Of a DNA stretch of 32,000 nt, positions 1 through 11,893 are shown one piece after another. Below the pieces are notes generated by a model. That model made no database searches, was not told the DNA's origin, and saw only the letters and a program-made list of their open reading frames with translations. The position numbers and the translations under genes were made by a program. Origin of the DNA: Clostridia bacterium (GTDB taxonomy: Bacteria; Bacillota; Clostridia; Oscillospirales; Acutalibacteraceae); assembly GCA_017435665.1 (NCBI GenBank), contig JAFSEP010000064.1, positions 5,357 through 37,356 of the forward strand, written 5' to 3'. How positions within the stretch are numbered: position 1 is the stretch's first letter; each line of letters opens with the position of its first letter.

Positions 1-399
1 TATAAAAGATGTAATATTGAAATCGGAGATTTTCTTATTGTAAATACAGGTGCAACAATAGGTAAATCTGCAATAGCAACTGATTCAAGAACAGAACACA
101 CACTTTTGCAGAAAAGTGTTGCATTATTAAAGGTTAAACATGAGTTGTTAAATCCTGTGTTCCTTAAATGGTGCTATAGGGTAAATACAAAAATGTATAT
201 GGTTGAAAGTGCATCAGCACAGCCTAACTTGTTGCTTTCAAAGATAAATGCAACTGAAATATATGTGCCACATATTGAGTTGCAAAATCAGTTTGCAACC
301 TTCGTCGAACAAGTCGACAAATCAAAAGTTGCAGTGCAAAAAGCACTCGATGAAGCGCAAACACTGTTTGACAGTTTAATGCTGGAATATTTTAGATGA
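1..399 (+). CDS. hsdS: Type I restriction-modification specificity subunit HsdS, C-terminal part (5' end outside window)
   Basis: Frame 1 is open from nt 1 (YKRCNIEIGDFLIVNTGATIGKSAIA...) to TGA at 397-399. It has a TRD-like GDxLxxxxGxxxGK segment and the typical HsdS C-terminal conserved helix (IYVPHIELQNQFATFVEQVDKSKVAVQKALDEAQTLFDSLMLEYF). The tracked start at 106 is a TTG inside a longer open frame. Confidence 0.85.
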   Translation, partial: YKRCNIEIGDFLIVNTGATIGKSAIATDSRTEHTLLQKSVALLKVKHELLNPVFLKWCYRVNTKMYMVESASAQPNLLLSKINATEIYVPHIELQNQFATFVEQVDKSKVAVQKALDEAQTLFDSLMLEYFR

Positions 400-408
400 G
401 GTGAAAAC

Positions 409-1569
409 ATGATTGAAAGACGGACAAAAGAAGATAAGCCTGTTTTAGCAATTTGCTATGATTTTGATAAAACTTTATCTCCTGATGATATGCAAGCTCA
501 AGGATATATACAAGAGGTTTTCGGCGATGACGTGCAAGCATTTTGGGATGAGTGTAAAGATTTGGCCGAAGCCAATGAAATGGACTCCAATTTAGCTTAT
601 ATGCGTAAAATGATGGAACATGCGCATGGGCGAATTGTGTTAACAAGAAAAACATTAAGGGAGTACGGCGCCAAAGTGAAATTGTTTCCCGGCGTAGAGG
701 AGTGGTTTGAACGAATCAGAGATTTCGGCAGACAGCACGATGTGATTGTCGAGCATTATATCATATCTTCAGGTCTTAAAGAAATGATTGAAGGAACAAA
801 TATTGCAAAAGAATTTGAACAAATATATGCAAGTTCATTTTTATTTGACGATAAAGAGGTTCCCATTTGGCCTGCTCAAGCCGTAAATTATACAAATAAA
901 ACACAGTTTTTGTTTAGAATTGAAAAGGGTGTTTTAGACGTTAATGATTCTGGTGTAAATGATTACTTTGAGCCGGAAAAGATTCGTGTTCCTTTTAGAA
1001 ACATTGTGTACATAGGTGACAGTATGACGGATATTCCGTGTATGAAGCTTGTCAATGCTAACGGTGGTCATTCCATAGCTGTTTATGATAATAGTACATT
1101 AGATAAAAGCAAAGCGTTTCAAATGTTGTCTGATAACCGCATTAAATATTTTACCCCTGCTGATTATACTGATGGATCGGAGTTGGACAAACTTGTAAAG
1201 TCTATTATTATCAGAACGGCAGCAAATGAGGTTTTAGAGGAGACACATTTTGCTTGCAAAAAAGAGCGAGATGCCGCACAAGACTCTAGCAATGCTAAGT
1301 ATTCACAGGAGCATATGAAACTGATTTTTTCGCTGGATGGAAGCCGAAATTTCGAATCCACTCATGCAATGATGCCCGAGTTGCTCTCTATTGACGATTG
1401 GTCAAAAGATGAAATTGACATATTACTTGATATCGCATTAAATCGTCACCCAGTTCGTTACTTGCTTAATGATGAGGATGTTAACGCTTTTTATCGTAAA
1501 ATCATTGGTATGTTGAAAAAGCCGACCGATAAAGCAAAAAAGGTTATGAAGCGTTTCGATAAAGAGTGA
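409..1569 (+). CDS. HAD-superfamily hydrolase/phosphatase (PSP-like) with an uncharacterised C-terminal extension of about 110 aa
   Basis: 386-aa ORF. ATG lies 9 nt after the hsdS stop, with GAGGTGA as RBS. HAD motif I is DFDKT (D18/D20, nt 460-468), motif II is ISSG, and motif IV is GDSMTD (nt 1015-1032). The C-terminal region after about aa 270 has no motif I recognise. Confidence 0.8.
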   Translation: MIERRTKEDKPVLAICYDFDKTLSPDDMQAQGYIQEVFGDDVQAFWDECKDLAEANEMDSNLAYMRKMMEHAHGRIVLTRKTLREYGAKVKLFPGVEEWFERIRDFGRQHDVIVEHYIISSGLKEMIEGTNIAKEFEQIYASSFLFDDKEVPIWPAQAVNYTNKTQFLFRIEKGVLDVNDSGVNDYFEPEKIRVPFRNIVYIGDSMTDIPCMKLVNANGGHSIAVYDNSTLDKSKAFQMLSDNRIKYFTPADYTDGSELDKLVKSIIIRTAANEVLEETHFACKKERDAAQDSSNAKYSQEHMKLIFSLDGSRNFESTHAMMPELLSIDDWSKDEIDILLDIALNRHPVRYLLNDEDVNAFYRKIIGMLKKPTDKAKKVMKRFDKE

Positions 1570-1590
1570 ATAATTTTGTGAGGTAAAAAT

Positions 1591-1977
1591 ATGGAATACA
1601 AATATATGACGGATGCTGAACTTGCTTCGGTAATGGTAAGCTATATCACCCGAATAGACCATCTTAGAAATATAATAGGTCGCTATTTAGATCGTAACGA
1701 TCATGGCAATGTTCGTGCAGACCAAATCAAAGCGGCGTACAGAGAGTTAAAGAATGAACTGCGTGAAACTGCAGATTATCTTTGGTTGGAAAGAAATCGC
1801 AAAGGAAGCGTTCTGTATATGAGCGCTTTTTCTCCAAGCATACGCGAGGCAATGGCGGAAGGCTTCACTGTTCCTGTAAATGCTGCTGTTAATTTCCGAA
1901 TGTTTTCATCAGTTTCTGATGCGCACTATAAATTAACAAAATATGTGTCCCTTGAAGAATGGGGAGAGTTAATGTAA
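1591..1977 (+). CDS. Hypothetical protein (128 aa, likely helical), second gene of the hsdS-hsdR nested cassette
   Basis: ATG is preceded by GAGG and sits 21 nt after the upstream stop, on the same strand in a tight operon context. I recognise no family. Confidence 0.55.
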   Translation: MEYKYMTDAELASVMVSYITRIDHLRNIIGRYLDRNDHGNVRADQIKAAYRELKNELRETADYLWLERNRKGSVLYMSAFSPSIREAMAEGFTVPVNAAVNFRMFSSVSDAHYKLTKYVSLEEWGELM

Positions 1978-2024
1978 AAATGAAAAAAATTGAAATTGAT
2001 TGTAATTAAGAAAGGAACTATATT

Positions 2025-2600
2025 ATGGAAGAAATTAAAAATGCAAGCATATCTATTAATCTTAATGAAGGAAATATCCTGATTTCTGGTTCGGAGGATT
2101 TTGTGGAGAAAAATATGGAGAGCATATTTGCTTTTGTTGAGCGTAACAACAAATACAAAAGTACATTATCTCAAAAACAGAACTTACCGATATCTGATTC
2201 TCAAAAAGAAACTCCTATTTCTGGAAAGAGTTTTGAAGAAGAAAACAACAGTATTGTAACTGACAAATACATTAAATCTGGCGTTTATCATGTCGATTCA
2301 GAGGATGGTTCTATTTCCATTCTGAAGAAAATACCTGGAGACAATAAAGCTGAGAAAATGAAAAATATTACACTAATCGTGCTGTATATTAGAAAAGGGA
2401 AAGTTCCCGGAAAGGAAATCATCCCTATTTGCGAAAAACATGCTTGTTATGATAGCGCGAATTTCTCAACTACATTTAAGAATGAGAAAACGAATATTAT
2501 TCGCAAGGGCAGTGGTCAGTCTTGGACAATTGAGCTAACACAACCTGGAGAATCTGCTGCATTAGCTTTACTGGAGGAAATGGCAAATGACAAGAAGTGA
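2025..2600 (+). CDS. Hypothetical protein (191 aa) with a low-complexity linker and a possible C-terminal winged-helix-like region
   Basis: ATG is preceded by AAAGGAA. The 3' end overlaps the next gene by 14 nt, suggesting translational coupling. The C-terminal segment NITLIVLYIRKGKVPGKEIIPICEKH...WTIELTQPGESAALALLEE has a wHTH-like pattern by eye only. Confidence 0.55.
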   Translation: MEEIKNASISINLNEGNILISGSEDFVEKNMESIFAFVERNNKYKSTLSQKQNLPISDSQKETPISGKSFEEENNSIVTDKYIKSGVYHVDSEDGSISILKKIPGDNKAEKMKNITLIVLYIRKGKVPGKEIIPICEKHACYDSANFSTTFKNEKTNIIRKGSGQSWTIELTQPGESAALALLEEMANDKK

Positions 2601-3339
2601 TATTCAAAATGTTTTGGCGACAGCATACCCGTCAGAACTTGTTGACTCTATGTTAGCCAGCTATGAGAATGCTCTTGCTGAATATAAAAAAGAGCATTGG
2701 CAGTATTTTGGTAATGAAATCGGACAATTTGTTGAGGTTGCTCGTCGCATGATTGAATATCAACTTGATAATCGATATACCCCCTTAGCGGATAAACTTG
2801 CCAATTTCAATGAAAGAATTTTAACAGCTTGGGAAAATTATGATTCAAAATTCTCTGAAGTATATCGCATAGTTATTCCGAGGTGTCTTTATTCGATGTA
2901 TTGTCTTCGCAACAAGCGAGGAATGATACATAAAAGTCATATTGACCCTAATAGAATGGATGCATCTGTATTGTTGAGCAATACGAAATGGGTTCTTGCA
3001 GAAATATTCCGTCAGATCTCTACGATGTCATTTGAGGAAACAGAAGAAATTGTAAATTCTATAATGTGTAAAGAATCTTCGATTGTTTGGGATACAGGCA
3101 ATTGCTTGCGTATTTTAGATACTAAAATGAGTTGTAAGAACAAGGTGTTATGTCTTTTATACATGAAAGACGGCCAATCGGACACGGATTTGCAAAAATC
3201 TATTGAATATAAAAACACAACAGAATTTAAGCACGTACTAAGACTGCTTCACAAAGAAAAATTCATAGAATATGCTGATTCGAAATGTATCATTTCTCCA
3301 AAGGGCTTAACAGAAGCAGAAAATTTATTGACGAAATAA
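2587..3339 (+). CDS. Hypothetical protein (250 aa) with a HEPN-like Rx6H motif and a possible C-terminal winged-helix-like region
   Basis: ATG is preceded by GGAGGA and overlaps the upstream ORF by 14 nt. The motif CLRNKRGMIHKSH (R108..H115, nt 2908-2931) sits in a predicted helical N-terminal half and resembles RNxxG..H motifs of HEPN/Abi_C/DUF4145-type domains. The C-terminal segment LCLLYMKDGQSDTDLQKSIEY...FIEYADSKCIISPKGLTEAENLL is wHTH-like by eye. Confidence 0.6.
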   Translation: MTRSDIQNVLATAYPSELVDSMLASYENALAEYKKEHWQYFGNEIGQFVEVARRMIEYQLDNRYTPLADKLANFNERILTAWENYDSKFSEVYRIVIPRCLYSMYCLRNKRGMIHKSHIDPNRMDASVLLSNTKWVLAEIFRQISTMSFEETEEIVNSIMCKESSIVWDTGNCLRILDTKMSCKNKVLCLLYMKDGQSDTDLQKSIEYKNTTEFKHVLRLLHKEKFIEYADSKCIISPKGLTEAENLLTK

Positions 3340-3353
3340 GTGATGGTGATTAA

Positions 3354-6300
3354 ATGACCAACTTTGACTTCTTAACAAAGGACAAGCAATTTGATACCTT
3401 TTCTTCTGTTGCAGTTGCGGCCGAAAAGACCTTACATATTGACCTGTCCACATCAATAATAAATTGTCGCAGGACGATGGAAATGGCTGTTAAATGGATG
3501 TATTCCGTTGACGGTTCTCTTGTTATGCCCTGGCAGGATACCTTGGTCAGCTTAATGAATACGGAGGAGTTCCGTGATATTGTCGGTACTGATATATGGC
3601 GAAGAATGGATTTCATCCGCCGTGTAGGTAATAATGCCGCGCATACGGGTAAAAAGGTCACTCTTGAACAGGCGGAGCTTTGCCTTGAAAACCTTTTTGT
3701 TTTTCTTGATTTTGTTGCTTATTGCTATTCTGATAATTATACCGAAAGTCAGTTTGATAAGGAACTTCTTAATCTTACTACTGAAGAAGCTCTTGATTTT
3801 GTGTCACATAAGGATATTGACCTTGCAGCATTGATCGCTGAAAATGAGTCCCTCAAGGCAGAGTTAACTGCCCGTCGAGAGGAGCAGCAGCAGACCTATG
3901 TTCCGAAGCCTCTTGATATTTCCGAGTATAAGACTAGAAAGATTTATATTGATACTATGCTCACCGATGCTGGCTGGACTGAGGGAAAGGATTGGGTTAA
4001 CGAATATGAACTGCCCGGTATGCCTAATAAGAGCGAGGTGGGTTTTGCAGATTATGTTCTTTTCGGTGACGACGGAAAGCCTCTTGCGGTTTTAGAAGCC
4101 AAGCGCACCTGCGTAGATGTGTCTAAGGGTAGACAGCAGGCTAAGCTCTATGCGGACCTTTTAGAGAAGAAATTTGGTTGCCGTCCTGTTATCTTCCTTT
4201 CTAACGGTTTTGATACCCGAATTACGGATAATCTTTATCCCGAACGCAAGGTTGCAACTATCTACTCCAAACGTGACATTGAAAAGATGTTTAATCTTCA
4301 GACTATGCGGACAAGCCTTAATCATGTGGTTATTGATAAGAATATAGCCGGCCGCTACTATCAGGAGGGTGCTATTAAGGCTGTTTGTGATAGCTTCGGC
4401 AAGAAAAACCGTCGTAAAGCCTTGCTTGTTATGGCTACTGGCTCAGGCAAGACAAGAACGGTTATTGCTCTTTGTGATGTGCTTTTACAGCATGGATGGG
4501 TTAAGAATATTCTTTTCCTTGCGGACCGCAACTCTCTTGTTACCCAGGCGAAACGTAGCTTTGTGAATATGTTGGATTATCTTTCCGTGACTAATCTTTG
4601 CGAAGAAAAAGACAACTATAACGCACACTGTGTATTCTCGACTTATCAGACAATGATGAACTGTATTGATTCGGTTAAGGATGAGAAGGGTAAACTCTTT
4701 ACCTGCGGTCACTTTGATTTGGTTATATGTGACGAGGCTCACCGTTCAATCTACAATAAGTATCGTGATATATTTAATTATTTTGACGCACCTTTGGTGG
4801 GTCTTACAGCTACGCCTAAAGATGAAATTGATAAAAACACCTATGAAGTTTTTGAACTTGAAAACGGCGTTCCTACTTACGGTTATGAACTTGCAGATGC
4901 TGTAAAAGATGGTTATCTTGTTGATTTTATGTCGGTAGAAACCAAGCTTAAATTTATAGAGCAGGGTATTATTTATGATGAACTCTCAGATGAAGATAAA
5001 GAAGAGTATGAAGCTACCTTTGCCCGTGACGGTGATATGCCCGACAGAATCGGTTCGGCGGCTCTTAATGATTGGATTTTTAATGAGGATACTATCAAAG
5101 AAGTGTTGAATGTCTTGATGACAAAGGGTATTAAAATTGATTACGGTCAGAAGATAGGAAAAACAATTATTTTTGCTAAGAACCATCGCCATGCAGAAAA
5201 GATATTTGAAGTATTTAATAAAGAGTATCCGCATCTTAATGGCTATGCAAAGGTAATTGATAACAAAATCAACTACGCTCAGAGTGCAATTGATGAGTTT
5301 TCTGATGCTAAAAAGTTACCGCAGATAGCTATATCTGTCGATATGCTAGATACGGGCATAGATGTGCCTGAGGTACTGAATCTAGTTTTCTTCAAAAAAG
5401 TAATGAGTAAGGCGAAATTCTGGCAGATGATTGGCCGCGGAACCCGTCTTTGTCCCGGACTTCTCGACGGTGAAGACAAGAAGATGTTCTACATTTTTGA
5501 TTTCTGCGGGAATTTTGAGTTTTTCCGTATGGGCGGAAAAGGAAAATCTGCTAATCAGATTGCTTTGCAGGGAGCCATTTTTAACCTCAAAGTACAGATG
5601 GCTTTCAAATTACAGGATTTAGCTTATCAGACTGATGAGCTTATTACATTCCGCAAAGAGTTAGTGGATGATATGGTTCGTAAAGTCAGAGAGCTCAATA
5701 AAGAGAACTTTGCTGTCCGTCAGCATCTGAAATATGTAGAGTTATATGCTAATCCTGATAATTTCACTTCACTTTCTTATGAAGATACTTTGATTATTGC
5801 GGATGAGCTTGCACCGCTTATTACACCTGACGAAGATGATCCAAAATCAATGCGATTTGATGCTCTTATGTACGGAATAGAATTGGCGTACCTTGTGGGT
5901 AAAAAATATAACAGAGCGCGAAGTGATTTGTATAAAAAGGTTTCAGGAATAGCAAGTGTTGCCAATATTCCTGAGATTATGGTTCAGTCAGAACTTATCG
6001 ATAAGATTCTTCATACTGATTATGTAGATAATGCAGGTATAAATGAGTTCGAATATATTCGTGAGAATTTAAGAGACTTAATCAAGTATATACCTTATAA
6101 CGGCGCTATATATCATACTAATTTTGATGATGAAATACTCTCTATTGATTGGAATGAATCGGATCTGGAGAGTGATGACCTTAAGAATTATAAGGCTAAA
6201 GCAGAGTTTTATGTTCGTCAGCATCAGGATAATGAGGTTATTGCCAAACTAAAATCAAACATACCTCTTGATTCTAACGATGTAAAAGTATTGGAGCAAA

Positions 6301-6644
6301 TCTTATGGAGCGAGGTAGGCTCTAAGGAAGATTATGTGGCTGAGTTTGGTGAAAAGCCTCTTGGTGAATTTGTTCGAGAAATTGTTGGCCTAGATATGAA
6401 TGCGGCAAAAGCCGCTTTTGCAGATTATCTGAACGATGTTAACCTTGATTCGAGACAGATTTATTTCGTTAACCAGATAGTTGAGTACATAGTCCATAAC
6501 GGCTTAATGAAGGATCTTTCTGTATTGCAGGAATCACCTTTTACAGACAAGGGTAGTGTTGTTGAGGTGTTTACAGACCTTAGTGTTTGGATGGGTATTC
6601 GTAAAATTATCGAACAAGTCAATGCGAACGCTGTGGCGGCATAA
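3354..6644 (+). CDS. hsdR: Type I restriction enzyme R subunit HsdR with N-terminal DUF4145/HEPN-like domain and EcoEI_R_C-like C-terminus
   Basis: 1096-aa ORF. The N-terminus has FIRRVGNNAAHTGK (DUF4145-type RxxGNxxAH, about nt 3618-3650). The PD-(D/E)xK nuclease motif is ADYVLFGDDGKPLAVLEAKR. Helicase motif I is MATGSGKT, motif II is ICDEAHRS, motif III is LTATP, and motif VI is QMIGRGTR. The C-terminal segment YFVNQIVEYIVHNGLMK...SPFTDKGSVVEVF is typical of the EcoEI-type R C-terminal domain. Confidence 0.95.
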   Translation: MTNFDFLTKDKQFDTFSSVAVAAEKTLHIDLSTSIINCRRTMEMAVKWMYSVDGSLVMPWQDTLVSLMNTEEFRDIVGTDIWRRMDFIRRVGNNAAHTGKKVTLEQAELCLENLFVFLDFVAYCYSDNYTESQFDKELLNLTTEEALDFVSHKDIDLAALIAENESLKAELTARREEQQQTYVPKPLDISEYKTRKIYIDTMLTDAGWTEGKDWVNEYELPGMPNKSEVGFADYVLFGDDGKPLAVLEAKRTCVDVSKGRQQAKLYADLLEKKFGCRPVIFLSNGFDTRITDNLYPERKVATIYSKRDIEKMFNLQTMRTSLNHVVIDKNIAGRYYQEGAIKAVCDSFGKKNRRKALLVMATGSGKTRTVIALCDVLLQHGWVKNILFLADRNSLVTQAKRSFVNMLDYLSVTNLCEEKDNYNAHCVFSTYQTMMNCIDSVKDEKGKLFTCGHFDLVICDEAHRSIYNKYRDIFNYFDAPLVGLTATPKDEIDKNTYEVFELENGVPTYGYELADAVKDGYLVDFMSVETKLKFIEQGIIYDELSDEDKEEYEATFARDGDMPDRIGSAALNDWIFNEDTIKEVLNVLMTKGIKIDYGQKIGKTIIFAKNHRHAEKIFEVFNKEYPHLNGYAKVIDNKINYAQSAIDEFSDAKKLPQIAISVDMLDTGIDVPEVLNLVFFKKVMSKAKFWQMIGRGTRLCPGLLDGEDKKMFYIFDFCGNFEFFRMGGKGKSANQIALQGAIFNLKVQMAFKLQDLAYQTDELITFRKELVDDMVRKVRELNKENFAVRQHLKYVELYANPDNFTSLSYEDTLIIADELAPLITPDEDDPKSMRFDALMYGIELAYLVGKKYNRARSDLYKKVSGIASVANIPEIMVQSELIDKILHTDYVDNAGINEFEYIRENLRDLIKYIPYNGAIYHTNFDDEILSIDWNESDLESDDLKNYKAKAEFYVRQHQDNEVIAKLKSNIPLDSNDVKVLEQILWSEVGSKEDYVAEFGEKPLGEFVREIVGLDMNAAKAAFADYLNDVNLDSRQIYFVNQIVEYIVHNGLMKDLSVLQESPFTDKGSVVEVFTDLSVWMGIRKIIEQVNANAVAA

Positions 6645-6671
6645 TGTAAACAAAAAAGGATTTTACATAAT

Positions 6672-6905
6672 ATGATGCGAAGAAAAGTAATTAAAAATGC
6701 AATTCAGTGTAATCTCTGCGGAGATATAATTGAATCAACCTACAGACATGATTTTGTTGAGTGTAGTTGTAAGGCTTGTTTCGTTGACGGTGGACACGAT
6801 TATCAACGAATTGGTTATGCAGAAGAAGGATGTTTTACAAATCTTTCTGTTTATGAAGAAGTTGATTATATTGAGGCGCGTTATAAAAAGTTGCTCGATA
6901 AATGA
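6672..6905 (+). CDS. Small Cys-rich (zinc-ribbon-like) protein, 77 aa
   Basis: The Cys pattern is CNLCGD...HDFVECSCKACFVDGGHDY (CxxC plus CxCxxC). It lies 27 nt after the hsdR stop and 12 nt before the first cyclase gene, on the same strand. Confidence 0.6.
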   Translation: MMRRKVIKNAIQCNLCGDIIESTYRHDFVECSCKACFVDGGHDYQRIGYAEEGCFTNLSVYEEVDYIEARYKKLLDK

Positions 6906-6917
6906 GGTGATGTTCAA

Positions 6918-7652
6918 ATGTATGAATATAAAAAATCAAAAGAAACCATTGAAAAAATATTAAAATCACCAACTAAAGTTATAGAGAAATCTGCAATTCC
7001 AAGTTCAGATTCCGAGTTTACCTACGAGAATGGATTGAAATCTTGGGTAGGAGCATTGTTTGTTGATATTGTTAATTCTAGCAAATTGTTTGAAAATGCC
7101 AATGAGGATACAGCACGAATTATAAGAAGTTTTTGCTCTGAGATTATTTCAATTCTAAAAGACGATAGTAACTATCGAGAAATTGGCATCAGAGGAGATT
7201 GTGTGTACTGTATTTATAATGCCCCTTACCAAACTGATTTGGTAGAAATATTTCGCCATGCATATCGAATTAATTCATTCATGAGTATGTTGAATAAGTT
7301 GCTTCAAAAGAATGGTTACTCTGCTGTCAGAGTTGGCATAGGTCTAGGATGTGGAGAAGATTTAATTATTAAGGCAGGTCAAAACGGTAGCGGCATCAAT
7401 GATAAAATCTGGATTGGAAAAGCGGTTGTTGATGCAGCGCATCTGTCGGATGTTGCCAACAGAAACGGAGTTTCACCCATTGCAATGAGTCCGTTGTTCT
7501 ATGATAATGTTATAAAACATTTATGTAAGGAAAATGAGAAATATAAATCGTGGATCAGCGCTCACACTTCCGGTTATTATGGTAGCGTTGATTATTACCA
7601 CTGTAGCATAATAGAAACTGGTTTTGATAAATGGATTGAGGAGAATATCTGA
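6918..7652 (+). CDS. Class III nucleotidyl cyclase-like protein (Pycsar PycC-like), copy 1
   Basis: 244 aa with GAGGTGA as RBS. The class III cyclase motif order is FVDIVNSS (FxDIxGFT-like, metal Asp), IGIRGDCVYCIY (GD metal Asp), VRVGIGLGCGEDLIIKAG, then IWIGKAVVDAAHL (equivalent of GxxVNxAxR). Assignment is by motif recognition only. Confidence 0.7.
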   Translation: MYEYKKSKETIEKILKSPTKVIEKSAIPSSDSEFTYENGLKSWVGALFVDIVNSSKLFENANEDTARIIRSFCSEIISILKDDSNYREIGIRGDCVYCIYNAPYQTDLVEIFRHAYRINSFMSMLNKLLQKNGYSAVRVGIGLGCGEDLIIKAGQNGSGINDKIWIGKAVVDAAHLSDVANRNGVSPIAMSPLFYDNVIKHLCKENEKYKSWISAHTSGYYGSVDYYHCSIIETGFDKWIEENI

Positions 7653-7653
7653 T

Positions 7654-8253
7654 ATGACAACAATTACAGAAGGAAAAGAGAATAGTAAAGTGCTCCCCAG
7701 CGCAGAAGATCTTGAATATAAAATCGAAATTGCAACTCAAACTCTTGATCGCAATATTGGCTTTGTTACAAATTGCGATAACAAAACGTCTATTGTTTTA
7801 GCCGCATTCGGTATGCTTCTTGCAATTATTCTCACGAACGAAGGTTTGAATGAGATATTTAACATTGTGAAAGTATGTATTGAAACAAAGACTTTCTGCA
7901 GCATACTATATTTGCTTTGTTTTGCAAGTGCCGTCTTCTCTATGGTATTGGGGATGTTTAATCTTGGTAGAGTGCTGATTGCAAAAACCTCAGAAGAAGC
8001 GATTGGAAGAAAAAATGAGAATTCTCGCATCTTCTTTGCTGGAATAAGAAAAAATGGTAACTATAATACCTACCATCAGAAATTCTGTGCTATGAGTAAG
8101 GAAGATGTCCTAAGCGACTTGATTGAACAGATATACATAAATGCAGATATTGCATCTGTCAAATATGCAACATATAATCGGGGGGTTAGACGCACAGTCG
8201 TAGGATTCGTTTTCTTCGTTGTGCTCCTGCTTATTGGCATTTATATCTATTGA
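7654..8253 (+). CDS. Pycsar effector-like membrane protein (PycTM/DUF5706-like), 3 predicted TM helices
   Basis: I place the start at ATG 7654, with GAGGAG 9 nt upstream and 1 nt after the cyclase-1 stop, rather than the tracked TTG at 7624. The N-terminal helix followed by NCDNKTSIVLAAFGMLLAIILTN resembles the ADTKA-type motif plus TM1 of PycTM. TM2 is FCSILYLLCFASAVFSMVLGMF and the C-terminal TM is TVVGFVFFVVLLLIGIYIY. Confidence 0.65.
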   Translation: MTTITEGKENSKVLPSAEDLEYKIEIATQTLDRNIGFVTNCDNKTSIVLAAFGMLLAIILTNEGLNEIFNIVKVCIETKTFCSILYLLCFASAVFSMVLGMFNLGRVLIAKTSEEAIGRKNENSRIFFAGIRKNGNYNTYHQKFCAMSKEDVLSDLIEQIYINADIASVKYATYNRGVRRTVVGFVFFVVLLLIGIYIY

Positions 8254-8263
8254 GGAGGACGCT

Positions 8264-9007
8264 ATGGCAACATATGATTATAGAAAAGGAAAAGAACGAG
8301 TTGAGTCAATATTAGACAATGATTTGACTGTAATTGAGCAAAACGAGGTGCCTAGTGATGAAGTATTTACATTTTCTAACGGTTATTATAGTTGGGTAAC
8401 GGGAGTGTTTGTCGACATTAGAGATTCCTCTACATTGTTTTCTGATGAAGATAAAGAGAAGGTATCAAAGGTTATTCGTAGTTTTACCTCTGAAGTTATT
8501 GAAATTTTAAGAAATGATGATAATTTAAGAGAAATAGGCATCCGTGGTGATTGTGTATATGCAATTTACACAACGCCTAAAAAATCGGCTATATTAGATG
8601 TTGCTGACAAAACATTCTATATTAATACATATATGGGAATGTTAAATAAACTGTTATCTGACCGTTCTCTTCCCAATATTAGTGTTGGCATTGGAATGTC
8701 CACTGCAAAAGAACTTGTTATAAAAGCTGGCAGAAAAAATGTTGGAATTAATAGTAAAGTATGGATAGGTAAAGCTGTAACAACAGCATCAAATCTATCA
8801 TCACTTGGTAATAAAAATGGGCGCAAAAGCTTAGTTTATTCTGTTTGCAGTTATAATAATTTCATTGAAGGATTAAAAGAAAGAAATAAAGATAAAAAAC
8901 CTGAAAGTTGGTTTACATATCATAATGATAGTAATGGCAAATATTATACGGCAAGTGTTGTAAAGAATGAGTTTGATAAGTGGATAACCAATGGTATGAA
9001 CGATTAA
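8264..9007 (+). CDS. Class III nucleotidyl cyclase-like protein (PycC-like), copy 2, paralog of 6918-7652
   Basis: I place the start at ATG 8264, with GAGGAGG 5 nt upstream, rather than the tracked 8219. Motifs are FVDIRDSS, IGIRGDCVYAIY, ISVGIGMSTAKELVIKAG and VWIGKAVTTASNL. It aligns with copy 1 over its full length at roughly 40 percent identity by eye. Shared blocks include IRSFxSExIxIL, REIGIRGDCVY, MLNKLL, GINxKxWIGKAV and FDKWI. Confidence 0.7.
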   Translation: MATYDYRKGKERVESILDNDLTVIEQNEVPSDEVFTFSNGYYSWVTGVFVDIRDSSTLFSDEDKEKVSKVIRSFTSEVIEILRNDDNLREIGIRGDCVYAIYTTPKKSAILDVADKTFYINTYMGMLNKLLSDRSLPNISVGIGMSTAKELVIKAGRKNVGINSKVWIGKAVTTASNLSSLGNKNGRKSLVYSVCSYNNFIEGLKERNKDKKPESWFTYHNDSNGKYYTASVVKNEFDKWITNGMND

Positions 9008-9029
9008 CTGAACTTTACCGCTTTAAAGC

Positions 9030-9058
9030 TTGACAATTAATTTATTATGTGCTACAAT
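9030..9058 (+). promoter_or_regulatory. Near-consensus sigma-A promoter (TTGACA - 17 nt - TACAAT) with no ORF behind it
   Basis: TTGACA is at 9030-9035, followed by a 17-nt spacer and TACAAT at 9053-9058. Confidence 0.6.
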
Positions 9059-9064
9059 TCATTT

Positions 9065-9300
9065 GCAATAGTAAAACAACAGAGTTTCAAGTGGCCCTGA
9101 AATTCACTTTGGGGAATGTTTGTCCCTCGTGATACTGTCCGTGATGCGATATTGTGATACCATATCTTAAAAGGGCGGTTTTGCACCCTCTGAAGCCCCT
9201 GTTTTACAGCGTTTTATAACAAATTTTTGCAAAACTAAGTGAGTGGGAATAAGAACCACAATCCCGAAACCCTTGATTTTACTGGGGTTTCGGGTGTTTT
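9065..9300 (+). ncRNA. Candidate unclassified small RNA or leader (about 235 nt) bounded by a consensus promoter and an intrinsic terminator
   Basis: The promoter at 9030-9058 and the terminator at 9263-9300 bracket a stretch with no credible ORF. Local hairpins are visible (aagtg...cactt, ggga...tccc), and gtgatac is repeated. I recognise no known riboswitch or T-box signature. Confidence 0.3.
9263..9300 (+). terminator. Rho-independent terminator
   Basis: CCCGAAACCC (9263-9272) pairs perfectly with GGGTTTCGGG (9285-9294). The loop is 12 nt and the stem is followed by TGTTTTT. Confidence 0.7.
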
Positions 9301-9346
9301 TGATGCTGCTTTTGATGTTATACTCATTTCCCGACTAACACAATAT

Positions 9347-9392
9347 CCCTCTGCCAAGTGTGCAACGCTTTGCAGAGGGACATCTTTTTTGT
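9347..9392 (+). terminator. Second rho-independent terminator
   Basis: CCCTCTGC (9347-9354) pairs with GCAGAGGG (9372-9379) and is followed by ACATCTTTTTTG. Confidence 0.6.
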
Positions 9393-9490
9393 ATGCTTGT
9401 GCCGGAATTTTATGTGAGCCTGTAAGCCGGTATTTTTCGGGGCTTGACTTTATACTCTCCGCCTCACCGCATAAATTTTAAAATAATTCA

Positions 9491-9519
9491 TTGACTAAAA
9501 CATCGGGTGATGATAAAAT
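9491..9519 (+). promoter_or_regulatory. Putative sigma-A promoter for the lipoprotein/uvrC genes
   Basis: TTGACT is at 9491-9496, followed by a 17-nt spacer and TAAAAT at 9514-9519. Confidence 0.5.
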
Positions 9520-9550
9520 TACCATATATATGTCCCGGAGGATTTATTAA

Positions 9551-10036
9551 ATGAAAAGAATTTTAACATTTGCAGTTTGTGCGGCGGTGTTCCTTTGCCT
9601 GCTTACCTCGTGCGGAGGCTCAAAAACATATGTTATAGCAACGGATAATCAGATGCAGCCATTCTGTTTCGTTGACGGTCAGGGGAATCCCATGGGCTTT
9701 GATGTCGATATAATAAAGGCTGTGGCTGAGAATACAGGCATCGAGATTGAATTGAAGCCTATGAGTCTGCTGGACGGCATTGAGGCACTGAAGGAGGGCA
9801 AGGTGGACGGCCTGATGGCTGCACTTATACCCTCAGACGAGATGATGCAGGATTTCGATTTCTCCGATATGTATTTTAATAATGAATATGCTTTTGCAGT
9901 TAAAAAGGGGAAAAATAAAAGACTGATTGAAAAGTTTAATGAAGGACTTTCGGCAATTACCGAAAGCGGAAAGTATAATGAGATTTACATCAGTAACTTC
10001 GGCGACGGAATTGACTATTTCGGCAGGGAGGACTGA
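9551..10036 (+). CDS. Lipoprotein resembling the N-terminal part of a family-3 amino-acid ABC substrate-binding protein (short, 161 aa)
   Basis: GGAGGA serves as RBS. The signal peptide with lipobox is LLTSCGG. The segment YVIATDNQMQPFCFVDGQGNPMGFDVDIIKAVAENTGIEIELKPMSLLDGIEALKEGKVDGLMAA is typical of SBP_bac_3. The protein is about 100 aa shorter than usual, and there are no adjacent permease or ATPase genes. Confidence 0.7.
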   Translation: MKRILTFAVCAAVFLCLLTSCGGSKTYVIATDNQMQPFCFVDGQGNPMGFDVDIIKAVAENTGIEIELKPMSLLDGIEALKEGKVDGLMAALIPSDEMMQDFDFSDMYFNNEYAFAVKKGKNKRLIEKFNEGLSAITESGKYNEIYISNFGDGIDYFGRED

Positions 10037-10060
10037 TTGATATAAACGGGAGGGATTACT

Positions 10061-11893
10061 GTGAATGATAAGCTGTCTGAGCTCAGAAAGAAGGCTATGA
10101 ATTTACCGCTTAATCCCGGTGTTTATATTATGAAAAACAAAAGCAGGGAAATTATTTATATAGGCAAGGCTAAGGTGCTTAAAAACAGAGTCAGCCAGTA
10201 TTTCGGCTCACAGAATAACCACAGCACCAAGGTCAGAAAAATGGTGGATAAGGTTGACGATTTTGACTATATCCTCACAGACAGCGAGTTTGAAGCACTC
10301 GTGCTTGAATGCAGTCTCATAAAGCAGCATATGCCTAAATATAACATTCTTCTCAAGGATGACAAGGGTTACAGCTATGTGAAAATAACCAAAGGACCTT
10401 GGGGCAAAATATCGGCCTGCTTCAGAAAAGACGACGATAACGCCGTATATCTCGGTCCCTTTACCTCAGGATACAGTATGCGTGCCACGGTGGAGGAGAC
10501 AAACAAAATCTATAAGCTTTATACCTGCAACAGAAAATTTCCACGTGATTTAGGAAAGGGGAGACCTTGCCTTAACTATTTTATAGGTCAGTGCTGTGCT
10601 CCCTGCAGAGGAAAAATTACCCCTGAGGAATACGAAGAAAACCTTAGAGATGCCGTTGAGTTTCTCAAGGGCGGACAGGGTCAGCAGGTTAAGAGACTCC
10701 GTGAGCTTATGGAGGAATACAGTGAAAACCTTGAATTTGAAAAGGCGGCAAAAATCCGTGACAGAATAAATTCTATGGAAAAAATTTATTCCGATAAGCA
10801 GAAGGTTGTGTCGTCTCTTATAAAGCATCAGGATGTTTTTGCCATAGTCAGCGCAGAGGAGAAGGCTTGTCTGCATATCCTGAGATTTAACAAGGGTGTG
10901 CTTTATGACAGTGAGGACTTCATTTTCGATGCAGAGGATGACCTGCCTTCCGTCAGATATGAGCTTATTATGAATTTTTATTCTCTCGGACGTGAGGTGC
11001 CGCCGAGAATTACCGTTGACGGCGAGGTTGAAAGCGATGAGATACTTTCACAATGGCTCAGCGAAAAAGCAGGACGAAAGGTAGTTATCGGTACCGTGCA
11101 GAAAGGCGAGCAGGCATCGCTTATGGCTATGTGCAGAAAGAATGCCGCTGAAAAGCTGGCTCAGTATCTTGGCAGAAAAGGAAAAGAAACAAATGCTCTT
11201 GATGAGCTGAAAACCTTGCTGGGCTTGCCGAAAATTCCCGAATATATTGAGTCGTACGATATATCCCACACAGCGGGAAGCGATAACGTTGCAGGTATGG
11301 TTGTATTCAGGAACGGGCTTCCCTATAAGAAAGCATACAAGCGCTTTAGTATAAAGGGCTTCAGCGGTCAGGACGATTACGGTTCAATGCGTGAGGTTCT
11401 TGACAGACGCTTTGCCCGTTATGCTGATGAAACCGAAACGGATGAAGGCTTCAAGGCTCTGCCTGATCTTATTCTCCTTGACGGTGGCGAGGGACAGGTA
11501 AATGCAGTTAAACCCGTTCTTGAAAAATACGGTCTGGATATACCGCTGTTCGGTATGGTGAAGGACGGTAAGCATAAAACACGGGCTATAACGGCAAACG
11601 GAAGCGAGATTTCAATCACATCAAAAAGGCAGGCGTTTACTCTTGTGTCAAATCTGCAGGAGGAGGTTCACCGTTACGCCATAACCTATCACAAGAAAAA
11701 GCATACTGCTTCTGCTCTTGAAACAAGGCTTACGGGCATTGAGGGCATCGGAAAGAAAAAGGCAGATTTGCTTATAAAGCATTTTAAGACAGTGAAAGCC
11801 ATAGCCTCGGCTGACGAGGAGACATTGGCGCAGATTAAGGGTATATCAAGGGAAAATGCCCGTAAAATATATGAGTTTTTCAGGGAGGATTAA
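10061..11893 (+). CDS. uvrC: Excinuclease ABC subunit C
   Basis: 610 aa with a GTG start after GGGAGGG. The GIY-YIG N-terminus is PGVYIMKNKSREIIYIGKAKVLKNRVSQYF. It has a UVR domain (EFEKAAKIRDRINSME), an Endo V-like nuclease region (YDISHTAGSDNVAGMVVF) and a C-terminal HhH (GIEGIGKKKADLLIKHF). Confidence 0.95.
   Translation: MNDKLSELRKKAMNLPLNPGVYIMKNKSREIIYIGKAKVLKNRVSQYFGSQNNHSTKVRKMVDKVDDFDYILTDSEFEALVLECSLIKQHMPKYNILLKDDKGYSYVKITKGPWGKISACFRKDDDNAVYLGPFTSGYSMRATVEETNKIYKLYTCNRKFPRDLGKGRPCLNYFIGQCCAPCRGKITPEEYEENLRDAVEFLKGGQGQQVKRLRELMEEYSENLEFEKAAKIRDRINSMEKIYSDKQKVVSSLIKHQDVFAIVSAEEKACLHILRFNKGVLYDSEDFIFDAEDDLPSVRYELIMNFYSLGREVPPRITVDGEVESDEILSQWLSEKAGRKVVIGTVQKGEQASLMAMCRKNAAEKLAQYLGRKGKETNALDELKTLLGLPKIPEYIESYDISHTAGSDNVAGMVVFRNGLPYKKAYKRFSIKGFSGQDDYGSMREVLDRRFARYADETETDEGFKALPDLILLDGGEGQVNAVKPVLEKYGLDIPLFGMVKDGKHKTRAITANGSEISITSKRQAFTLVSNLQEEVHRYAITYHKKKHTASALETRLTGIEGIGKKKADLLIKHFKTVKAIASADEETLAQIKGISRENARKIYEFFRED

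Follow-up and report, generated by a model that had tools for sequence, protein, structure and literature searches.

The hsdS-hsdR gap of a Clostridia type I restriction-modification operon as a cargo slot with three exchangeable modules

Do four genes lying between the specificity and restriction subunit genes of a type I restriction-modification (R-M) operon work as one defence system, or are they separate passengers? The question is raised by a stretch of 32,000 nucleotides (nt) from a Clostridia bacterium metagenome-assembled genome (MAG) (GCA_017435665.1, contig JAFSEP010000064.1, positions 5,357 to 37,356 of the forward strand), hereafter the window, in which genes designated A, B, C and D separate hsdS from hsdR. 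The original prediction, made from the letters alone, put the four forward as a candidate for a single undescribed system. Its account of the layout, four same-strand genes with the gaps and overlap given below, proved exact to the base against the list of open reading frames (ORFs). However, conserved co-occurrence of the four genes in other genomes was not found. Positions 409-3339 are the cargo slot of an operon of the form Fic-hsdM-x-hsdS-slot-hsdR, and this slot holds three separately exchangeable modules, namely A, B and C-D. Of the four genes, only the C-D pair is a widespread uncatalogued candidate. The features of the slot and its borders are as follows (window coordinates; lengths in amino acids, aa).

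1..399, + strand: 3′ part of hsdS, type I specificity subunit; the gene extends past the left window edge (ORF at 106-399; Pfam Methylase_S; PADLOC Specificity_I, 9.8e-18)
409..1569, + strand: gene A, HAD phosphatase, 386 aa (ORF list, PADLOC, Pfam)
460..474, + strand: HAD motif I of gene A (D18-F-D20-K-T22), read from the sequence
1591..1977, + strand: gene B, 128 aa (ORF list)
2025..2600, + strand: gene C, 191 aa (ORF list)
2587..3339, + strand: gene D, 250 aa (ORF list; 14-nt overlap with C)
2908..2931, + strand: Rx6H motif of D (R108-N-K-R111-G-M-I-H115), a putative active site, from conservation in homologues
3354..6644, + strand: hsdR, 1096 aa, right border of the slot (Pfam ResIII 7e-37, EcoEI_R_C and an N-terminal DUF4145; PADLOC REase_I 3e-150)

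In the ORF list the gaps are 9 nt (hsdS-A), 21 nt (A-B) and 47 nt (B-C), followed by the C/D overlap and a gap of 14 nt between D and hsdR. The window proteins are MBQ6874547-51 of the MAG, and full-length HsdS is 370-373 aa in longer contigs of the same locus.

Modularity of the slot

Loci of the A family were collected from one genome per GTDB species (79 loci) and those of the D family from metagenomes (80 loci, of which 70 had enough upstream DNA to be evaluable). All loci were then screened for B, C and D by hidden Markov models, and phmmer was used to find A and HsdR. C or D was present at none of the 79 A loci, and B at one. Likewise, A was present at none of the 70 evaluable D loci, and B at three. 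The complete set of four genes was recovered only from more than 20 near-identical contigs of one Clostridia MAG lineage, in which the proteins are 99-100% identical. On these counts the case for one four-gene system fails; tight operon spacing does not make a system.

Sister operons with HsdR proteins 69-90% identical were compared. A occupies the slot alone in L032 and together with two small ORFs (106 aa and 74 aa) in L030 and L036. The slot of L031 contains DUF6173, A, HNH, B and Mrr_cat, and that of L034 contains A, HNH and a complete Dodola system (9730-11639; DolA 8e-50, DolB 4.8e-102). In L028, B is accompanied by a 184-aa ORF and DUF2971/PDC-S31. Finally, B-C-D is the arrangement in L022-25, and C-D that in L019 (Tannockella kyphosi) and L109-133.

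The same divisions are visible in the DNA. Alignment of the window with the sister loci by blastn gave three homology blocks, at window positions 397-1569 (A), 1585-1981 (B) and 2021-3350 (C-D). Homology of the A block with L030, L032 and L034 stops at 1565-1569. The window shares the B block on its own with L028 and L031, and on the hsdR side homology with all sister loci restarts at 3345-3354. Every breakpoint thus falls in an intergenic spacer, which marks the slot as a cassette hotspot with three independent modules. The hsdS-hsdR gap is a natural example of "guilt-by-embedding", as one strain differs from another in which unrelated defence modules the gap contains. The benefit of this position would be shared expression and co-transfer rather than a common mechanism. 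In a near-identical strain (L007:2490-3200), two small ORFs of 63 aa and 168 aa, neither belonging to a known family, have been added between hsdS and gene A.

The C-D pair

A C-family gene was found directly upstream of D at 61 of the 70 evaluable loci. At eight of the other nine, D is abutted by a same-strand ORF of 154-205 aa without detectable similarity to C. These eight ORFs (L139-L144, L149 and L154) may represent an alternative partner family; the one at L139 (4643-5257) gave no Pfam match. The overlap between C and D, at 11-14 nt, is retained in Listeria, Tannockella and metagenome loci. C-D thus combines the adjacency, shared direction and translational coupling of a two-gene toxin-antitoxin (TA)-like unit. 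A variant was seen at L137 (6802-8002), where a tandem pair of C-family genes stands before one D gene.

The original prediction had proposed to check whether the block also occurs away from type I R-M; C-D does so, but the block as a whole does not. In Listeria monocytogenes (GCA_003173215.1, for example) C-D stands by itself between feoAB and a metallophosphatase gene. Elsewhere its neighbours are a type IIG R-M/UDG on one side and a Cas12a CRISPR locus on the other (L021), and it is found directly after AbiA and AbiLi (L157) and near MzaC (L164). Downstream DNA of 1.5 kb or more was available for 43 D loci, and at 25 of them no HsdR was found; the R-M-embedded copies are those at least 60% identical to the D of the window. 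In a library clustered at 50% identity, the D family has 1071 clusters when the cutoff is E≤1e-3 and 715 when it is E≤1e-10, and among the matches listed almost all are ~250 aa, fragments aside. Its members come from gut Firmicutes, Listeria, soil, sediment and marine metagenomes. Of 2.9 million viral contigs a single one gave a match, and phage and plasmid collections gave no match at all. C-D is a host-side family rather than a viral one. One D homologue of 296 aa (P0122) is annotated PF13337 (Lon-like ATPase), which we take to be a BrxL-type family; two adjoining genes were probably joined in the gene calling here, at the edge of a BREX-type locus.

Decayed copies were also observed. D is split into two ORFs in L117, L119 and L120 (gut-metagenome contigs, L022-type lineage), and in L003 (4851-6019), a contig otherwise identical, a frameshift divides the HAD gene into 323 + 66 aa. 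Such lesions fit costly accessory genes.

What might the two proteins do? B, C and D gave no match in Pfam, NCBIfam, PADLOC v2.0.0 or PHROGs and their homologues are all labelled "hypothetical", as had been anticipated for the 128-aa and 191-aa proteins when these were called unassignable. PDB searches by sequence and profile returned nothing for A, C or D. The AlphaFold2 (AF2) model of D (predicted local distance difference test score, pLDDT, 90.8) contains two domains, an all-helical one at residues 1-163 and a winged helix at ~165-250. Full-length D gave winged-helix matches only in Foldseek (probability 1.00, E ~0.1-0.3). MarR, OhrR and MepR superposed with a root-mean-square deviation (rmsd) of 1.5-2 Å over 62-68 residues, and the BFVD matches were of MotA and MarR type. 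As modelled, the C-terminal domain of D has a winged helix-turn-helix fold.

The N-terminal domain was all-helical when modelled alone as well (pLDDT 92.3, AF2). Among natural proteins in the PDB, HEPN structures head its Foldseek matches, with sacsin (3o10, probability 0.91) and the AbiV RNase (9bj5/9bj6) followed by TT1696 (1ufb, TM-score 0.56), ST0689 (1wol), 4nqf and Csm6 (6tug). R108 and H115 are invariant in 113 D homologues. In a set of 128 representatives of at most 50% mutual identity, R108 is retained in 126, N109 in 115, R111 in 123 and H115 in 126, and E50, P98, D125, W135 and E139 are each retained in at least 125. The HEPN signature is reportedly Rx4-6H (Anantharaman et al. 2013), and the motif of D, with N after R and H six residues on, fits it; judged by its alignment, D carries the conserved Rx4-6H motif of a HEPN protein.

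Protein C forms a family of 116 clusters. The family alignment consists of a conserved N-terminal mini-domain of ~40 aa, a variable low-complexity linker and a conserved C-terminal domain of ~110 aa. The C-terminal domain may be a winged helix, to judge from profile comparison. A search of Pfam, NCBIfam and PADLOC for a nucleotidyltransferase in C gave no match.

We infer from these features that C-D works on its own as an anti-phage or addiction module, of the TA or abortive-infection type. D would be the effector, a HEPN-like ribonuclease, probably dimeric, cutting RNA at an RNxRxxxH site (R108, H115), and its winged helix would serve in nucleic-acid binding or regulation. C, the upstream co-translated partner, would keep D inactive or sense infection, and it probably autoregulates through its own winged-helix-like domain. 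Gene A most likely hydrolyses a phosphorylated small molecule (a nucleotide or signal) independently of C-D. The R-M genes and all modules probably share a transcript. We hold this reading as a whole, with three independent cargo modules, C-D as a TA or abortive-infection RNase module and A acting separately, to be probable, with moderate confidence. More tentative is a further proposal, possible rather than likely in our judgement, that C-D is an undescribed, widespread two-gene anti-phage system in which D founds a new HEPN-like clade with a winged helix and is controlled by a partner without known relatives, B being separately a new small protein of defence islands that marks the junction behind restriction genes.

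Several results weigh against this interpretation. The HEPN matches of the D N-terminal domain are weak (all E>0.1, at 0.3-1.3; TM-scores 0.32-0.57), and designed helical bundles score similarly to the HEPN structures. Not one of 25 D members had a HEPN-clan match in Pfam, even at E≤1, and hhalign of the D N-terminal domain with the DUF4145/HEPN domain encoded in the same operon gave no significant score (probability 0.6%). The motif is placed at a helix end and in a lower-confidence loop (pLDDT ~64-69). In C, a KH-like N-terminus and a winged-helix-like C-terminus are hinted at by weak matches (E 0.002-0.03). A member-by-member Pfam scan of C produced only sub-threshold noise (KH-like and DUF6429), and hhalign of the C-terminal part with the winged helix of D was weak (E 0.033, probability 1.5%). 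Moreover, several C-D loci outside R-M, such as that of Listeria, have no recognisable defence neighbours, and others have only generic partial matches in PADLOC. A pooled PADLOC scan of 148 neighbour ORFs gave family counts only, with many generic ATPase matches, and only specific strong matches were used. Of the HEPN-like Rx6H protein in the original prediction, the motif has been confirmed (126 of 128 representatives), a profile match has not, and the fold matches are weak. A HEPN-like N-terminal domain in D is plausible but unproven, on the combined evidence of alignment and model.

Some of these results would suit a D that is no nuclease. C-D would then still be a defence or addiction module. 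Its helical domain, with the R, H, D, E and W residues, would bind a ligand or sense nucleic acid, and DNA would be the target of its two winged helices, which might switch transcription or bind or occlude phage DNA. Strong support exists for one fold only, the winged helix (rmsd 1.5-2 Å to MarR-type domains). Matches to HEPN structures are weak, include the non-catalytic proteins sacsin and TT1696 among the best, and are unaccompanied by any match to a catalytic-HEPN profile. However, R108, N109, R111, H115 and D125 are near-invariant across clusters of at most 50% identity, which resembles a catalytic site, and the R-N...H spacing fits the HEPN signature. We regard a non-nuclease D as unlikely.

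The ribonuclease module that we prefer must also be set against a pair without any part in defence. The C-terminus of each protein appears to be a winged-helix-type domain, as would suit a pair of DNA-binding regulators that accompany R-M systems and control, for instance, the R-M operon or genes of mobile elements. About one third of the sampled loci lie within type I R-M operons, and regulators are known in defence islands, RptR being an example (PMC12255303). On the other hand, C-D stands alone, with no R-M nearby, in Listeria and at most of the distant loci, and it is always within or at the end of an operon, never at the promoter. A domain of 160 residues with enzyme-like conservation would also be unusual in a simple repressor. 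We judge this explanation improbable.

Genes B and A and the surrounding island

Gene B belongs to a narrow, unannotated family of 96 clusters, all ~128 aa and at least 53% identical. Its alignment contains no conserved catalytic-type residues. When 42 members were scanned with Pfam, three had a sub-threshold match to Abi_2 (lowest E 0.0096), which was not relied on. B recurs behind R-M genes of both types I and II (HsdS, RE_Eco47II) and near HsdR, next to unrelated defence genes. It was found apart from A, C and D in six contexts, in one of them beside an insertion sequence (IS):

L190 (3937-12387): after RE_Eco47II; two ThsB-TIR genes come next, then a fragment of a HpaII-type nuclease and an OLD/UvrD pair
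L194: after RE_Eco47II; an Abi_C protein comes next
L192: close to a different HsdR, together with a TPR protein
L028: DUF2971 comes next
L031: a nuclease of Mrr type (Mrr_cat) comes next
L026: next to an IS (transposase)

In L190 the B gene is carried on a Mob/TnpV/integrase element, and the OLD-ATPase/UvrD pair is Gabija-like. B seems to be a junction marker directly after restriction genes in several unrelated islands. Could it instead be an optional third component of C-D? B stands directly upstream of C in two diverged lineages, those of the window and of L022-25 (60-67% identity), and in L117, L118 and L120. However, these cases are confined to one family of related R-M operons, B does without C-D in all six contexts above, and 67 of the 70 C-D loci do without B. 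A B-C-D unit is, in our view, quite improbable.

Gene A is a HAD-IB-type phosphatase (residues ~14-280) with a helical C-terminal extension of ~100 aa. Its match to Pfam PF12710 reached 35.3 bits against a cutoff of 27, and that to TIGR01488 (HAD-IB, NCBIfam) fell under its cutoff. HAD motifs I-IV read Y-D18-F-D20-x-T-L, EHYIISSG, NYTxKTQ and GDxMTDIPCMK. The catalytic residues D18, D20, T22, S120/S121, K164, D204 and D208 are at least 90% conserved in 71 family members, so the HAD phosphatase with intact motifs that had been read from the sequence is borne out.

Comparison with PADLOC placed gene A in PDC-S34 (PDLC05001, E 7.6e-180, residues 3-382 of 386; PDLC05002, 1.5e-122; PDLC05000, 1.3e-93). 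The PDC candidates go back to a published "guilt-by-embedding" screen for genes nested in type I R-M, BREX and DISARM operons (Payne et al. 2024, bioRxiv 10.1101/2024.01.29.577857). Consequently, both gene A and the idea of hitch-hiking in an R-M operon are already described. The proposal of an undescribed system thus falls for A and for the embedding, and is left as a candidate at least for C-D, which is uncatalogued in PADLOC v2.0.0. Neither a report of anti-phage activity of PDC-S34 nor the name itself was found in the literature searched, and the name is absent from the supplement of Payne et al.

The 386-aa long form of A was found at only seven GTDB loci, and all five evaluable ones have it in this R-M slot. 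The common short-form relatives of ~285 aa are 40-61% identical and retain the catalytic motifs. They sit in conserved housekeeping synteny (L037-L108), with spo0A as a neighbour at 24 of 72 loci and with an RluA-type pseudouridine synthase, D-Ala-D-Ala carboxypeptidase, ybeY and ham1 as other neighbours. In view of this synteny, the defence role of the PDC-S34 family is itself a candidate role only. A PADLOC match to PDC-S34 may not always mean defence, and users of that model should treat it with caution.

The features behind hsdR in the window are as follows.

6672..9007, + strand: DUF7695 gene (77 aa, zinc-ribbon-like; Pfam DUF7695 7e-24), then a Pycsar system
6918-7652, + strand: PycC (PADLOC 4.1e-87)
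7624-8253, + strand: PycTM (PADLOC 1.1e-29)
8219-9007, + strand: second cyclase-like ORF (weak Guanylate_cyc match in database gene calls)

In longer contigs the island reads Mob_Pre, DUF6809, TnpV, Fic, HsdM, a 180-aa ORF, HsdS, A, B, C, D and HsdR. It continues 3′ of HsdR with DUF7695, PycC/PycTM and the second cyclase, after which come the chromosomal SBP_bac_3 and uvrC. The type I R-M operon is therefore borne on a Mob/TnpV-flanked, mobilisable island with a Pycsar system directly behind the operon, in agreement with the defence setting first assigned to the four genes. The gap between hsdM and hsdS is a second variable slot, with a 180-aa protein here (L001:5149-5691 and equivalents), RhuM in L022 and a 138-aa protein in L028; it is empty in Tannockella (L019).

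A scan for terminator-like and promoter-like signals between the genes found none beyond shuffled expectation, and an Rfam search of positions 1-9600 found no RNA. Co-transcription of the cargo with the R-M genes is therefore plausible. Joint action of A, B, C and D as one four-component system, for which the tight spacing on one strand, the lack of an internal terminator and the block intact in more than 20 contigs might be cited, is highly improbable, as those contigs are essentially one strain, the four do not co-occur outside that lineage, and each module is found with other partners and bounded by DNA breakpoints.

Comparison with known systems

By their profiles, C-D and B are new relative to Pfam, NCBIfam, PHROGs and PADLOC v2, and the overall arrangement is already known. 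C-D is a sharply delimited candidate, with exact boundaries, a motif (R108/H115/D125) and stand-alone copies in the tractable Listeria monocytogenes. Should it protect against phage, it would provide a new HEPN-like effector architecture; should it not, the limits of inferring function from embedding would be shown.

In its organisation C-D resembles a type II TA pair. Two small co-directional genes overlap at stop and start, the smaller, putative DNA-binder comes first and the putative enzyme second, and the distribution is patchy and mobile with decayed copies. However, C and D match no known toxin or antitoxin family, and neutralisation of D by C is putative, by analogy with such pairs.

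The HEPN abortive-infection and toxin systems (AbiV, HEPN-MNT, HEC-08 and DS-11) share with D a helical domain and an Rx6H motif with N after R. AbiV and HEPN-MNT are, in addition, two-component units with an upstream partner, and the AbiV RNase is among the best natural structural matches of D. In contrast, D has no detectable sequence relationship to the HEPN Pfam families. The partner C lacks nucleotidyltransferase features and hence is no MNT, and it is a protein, whereas the partner of AbiV is an RNA antitoxin. Moreover, D ends in a winged helix, which is not described for AbiV, HEPN-MNT, HEC-08 or DS-11 in the literature compared.

PrrC is another example of a defence gene embedded in R-M. 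Unlike PrrC and RloC, genes A-D do not have an ABC-ATPase/anticodon-nuclease make-up, and PADLOC and Pfam gave no ATPase or PrrC match for them. TgvAB is likewise embedded in type I R-M (PMC11411939), and A-D differ from it in being without a GmrSD make-up.

HAD domains occur in defence systems, including the validated operon DS-9, in a role that is unexplained (DefensePredictor, PMC13092281). A is comparable to PDC-S34 and to DS-9B in being catalytically intact by its motifs and in lying in a defence locus. It differs from DS-9 in having no adjoining metallophosphatase and in its ~100-aa C-terminal extension, which is limited to the R-M-embedded subclade.

The nearest parallel to the locus as a whole comes from type I R-M, BREX and DISARM operons that carry embedded defence genes (Payne et al. 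2024). B, C and D stand outside the PDC set, with matches to 0 of the 5027 PADLOC v2.0.0 models. Nevertheless, the arrangement is the same, with unrelated same-strand defence genes nested between R-M subunit genes, A matching PDC-S34, and the sister slots holding Dodola, PDC-S31, HNH and Mrr.

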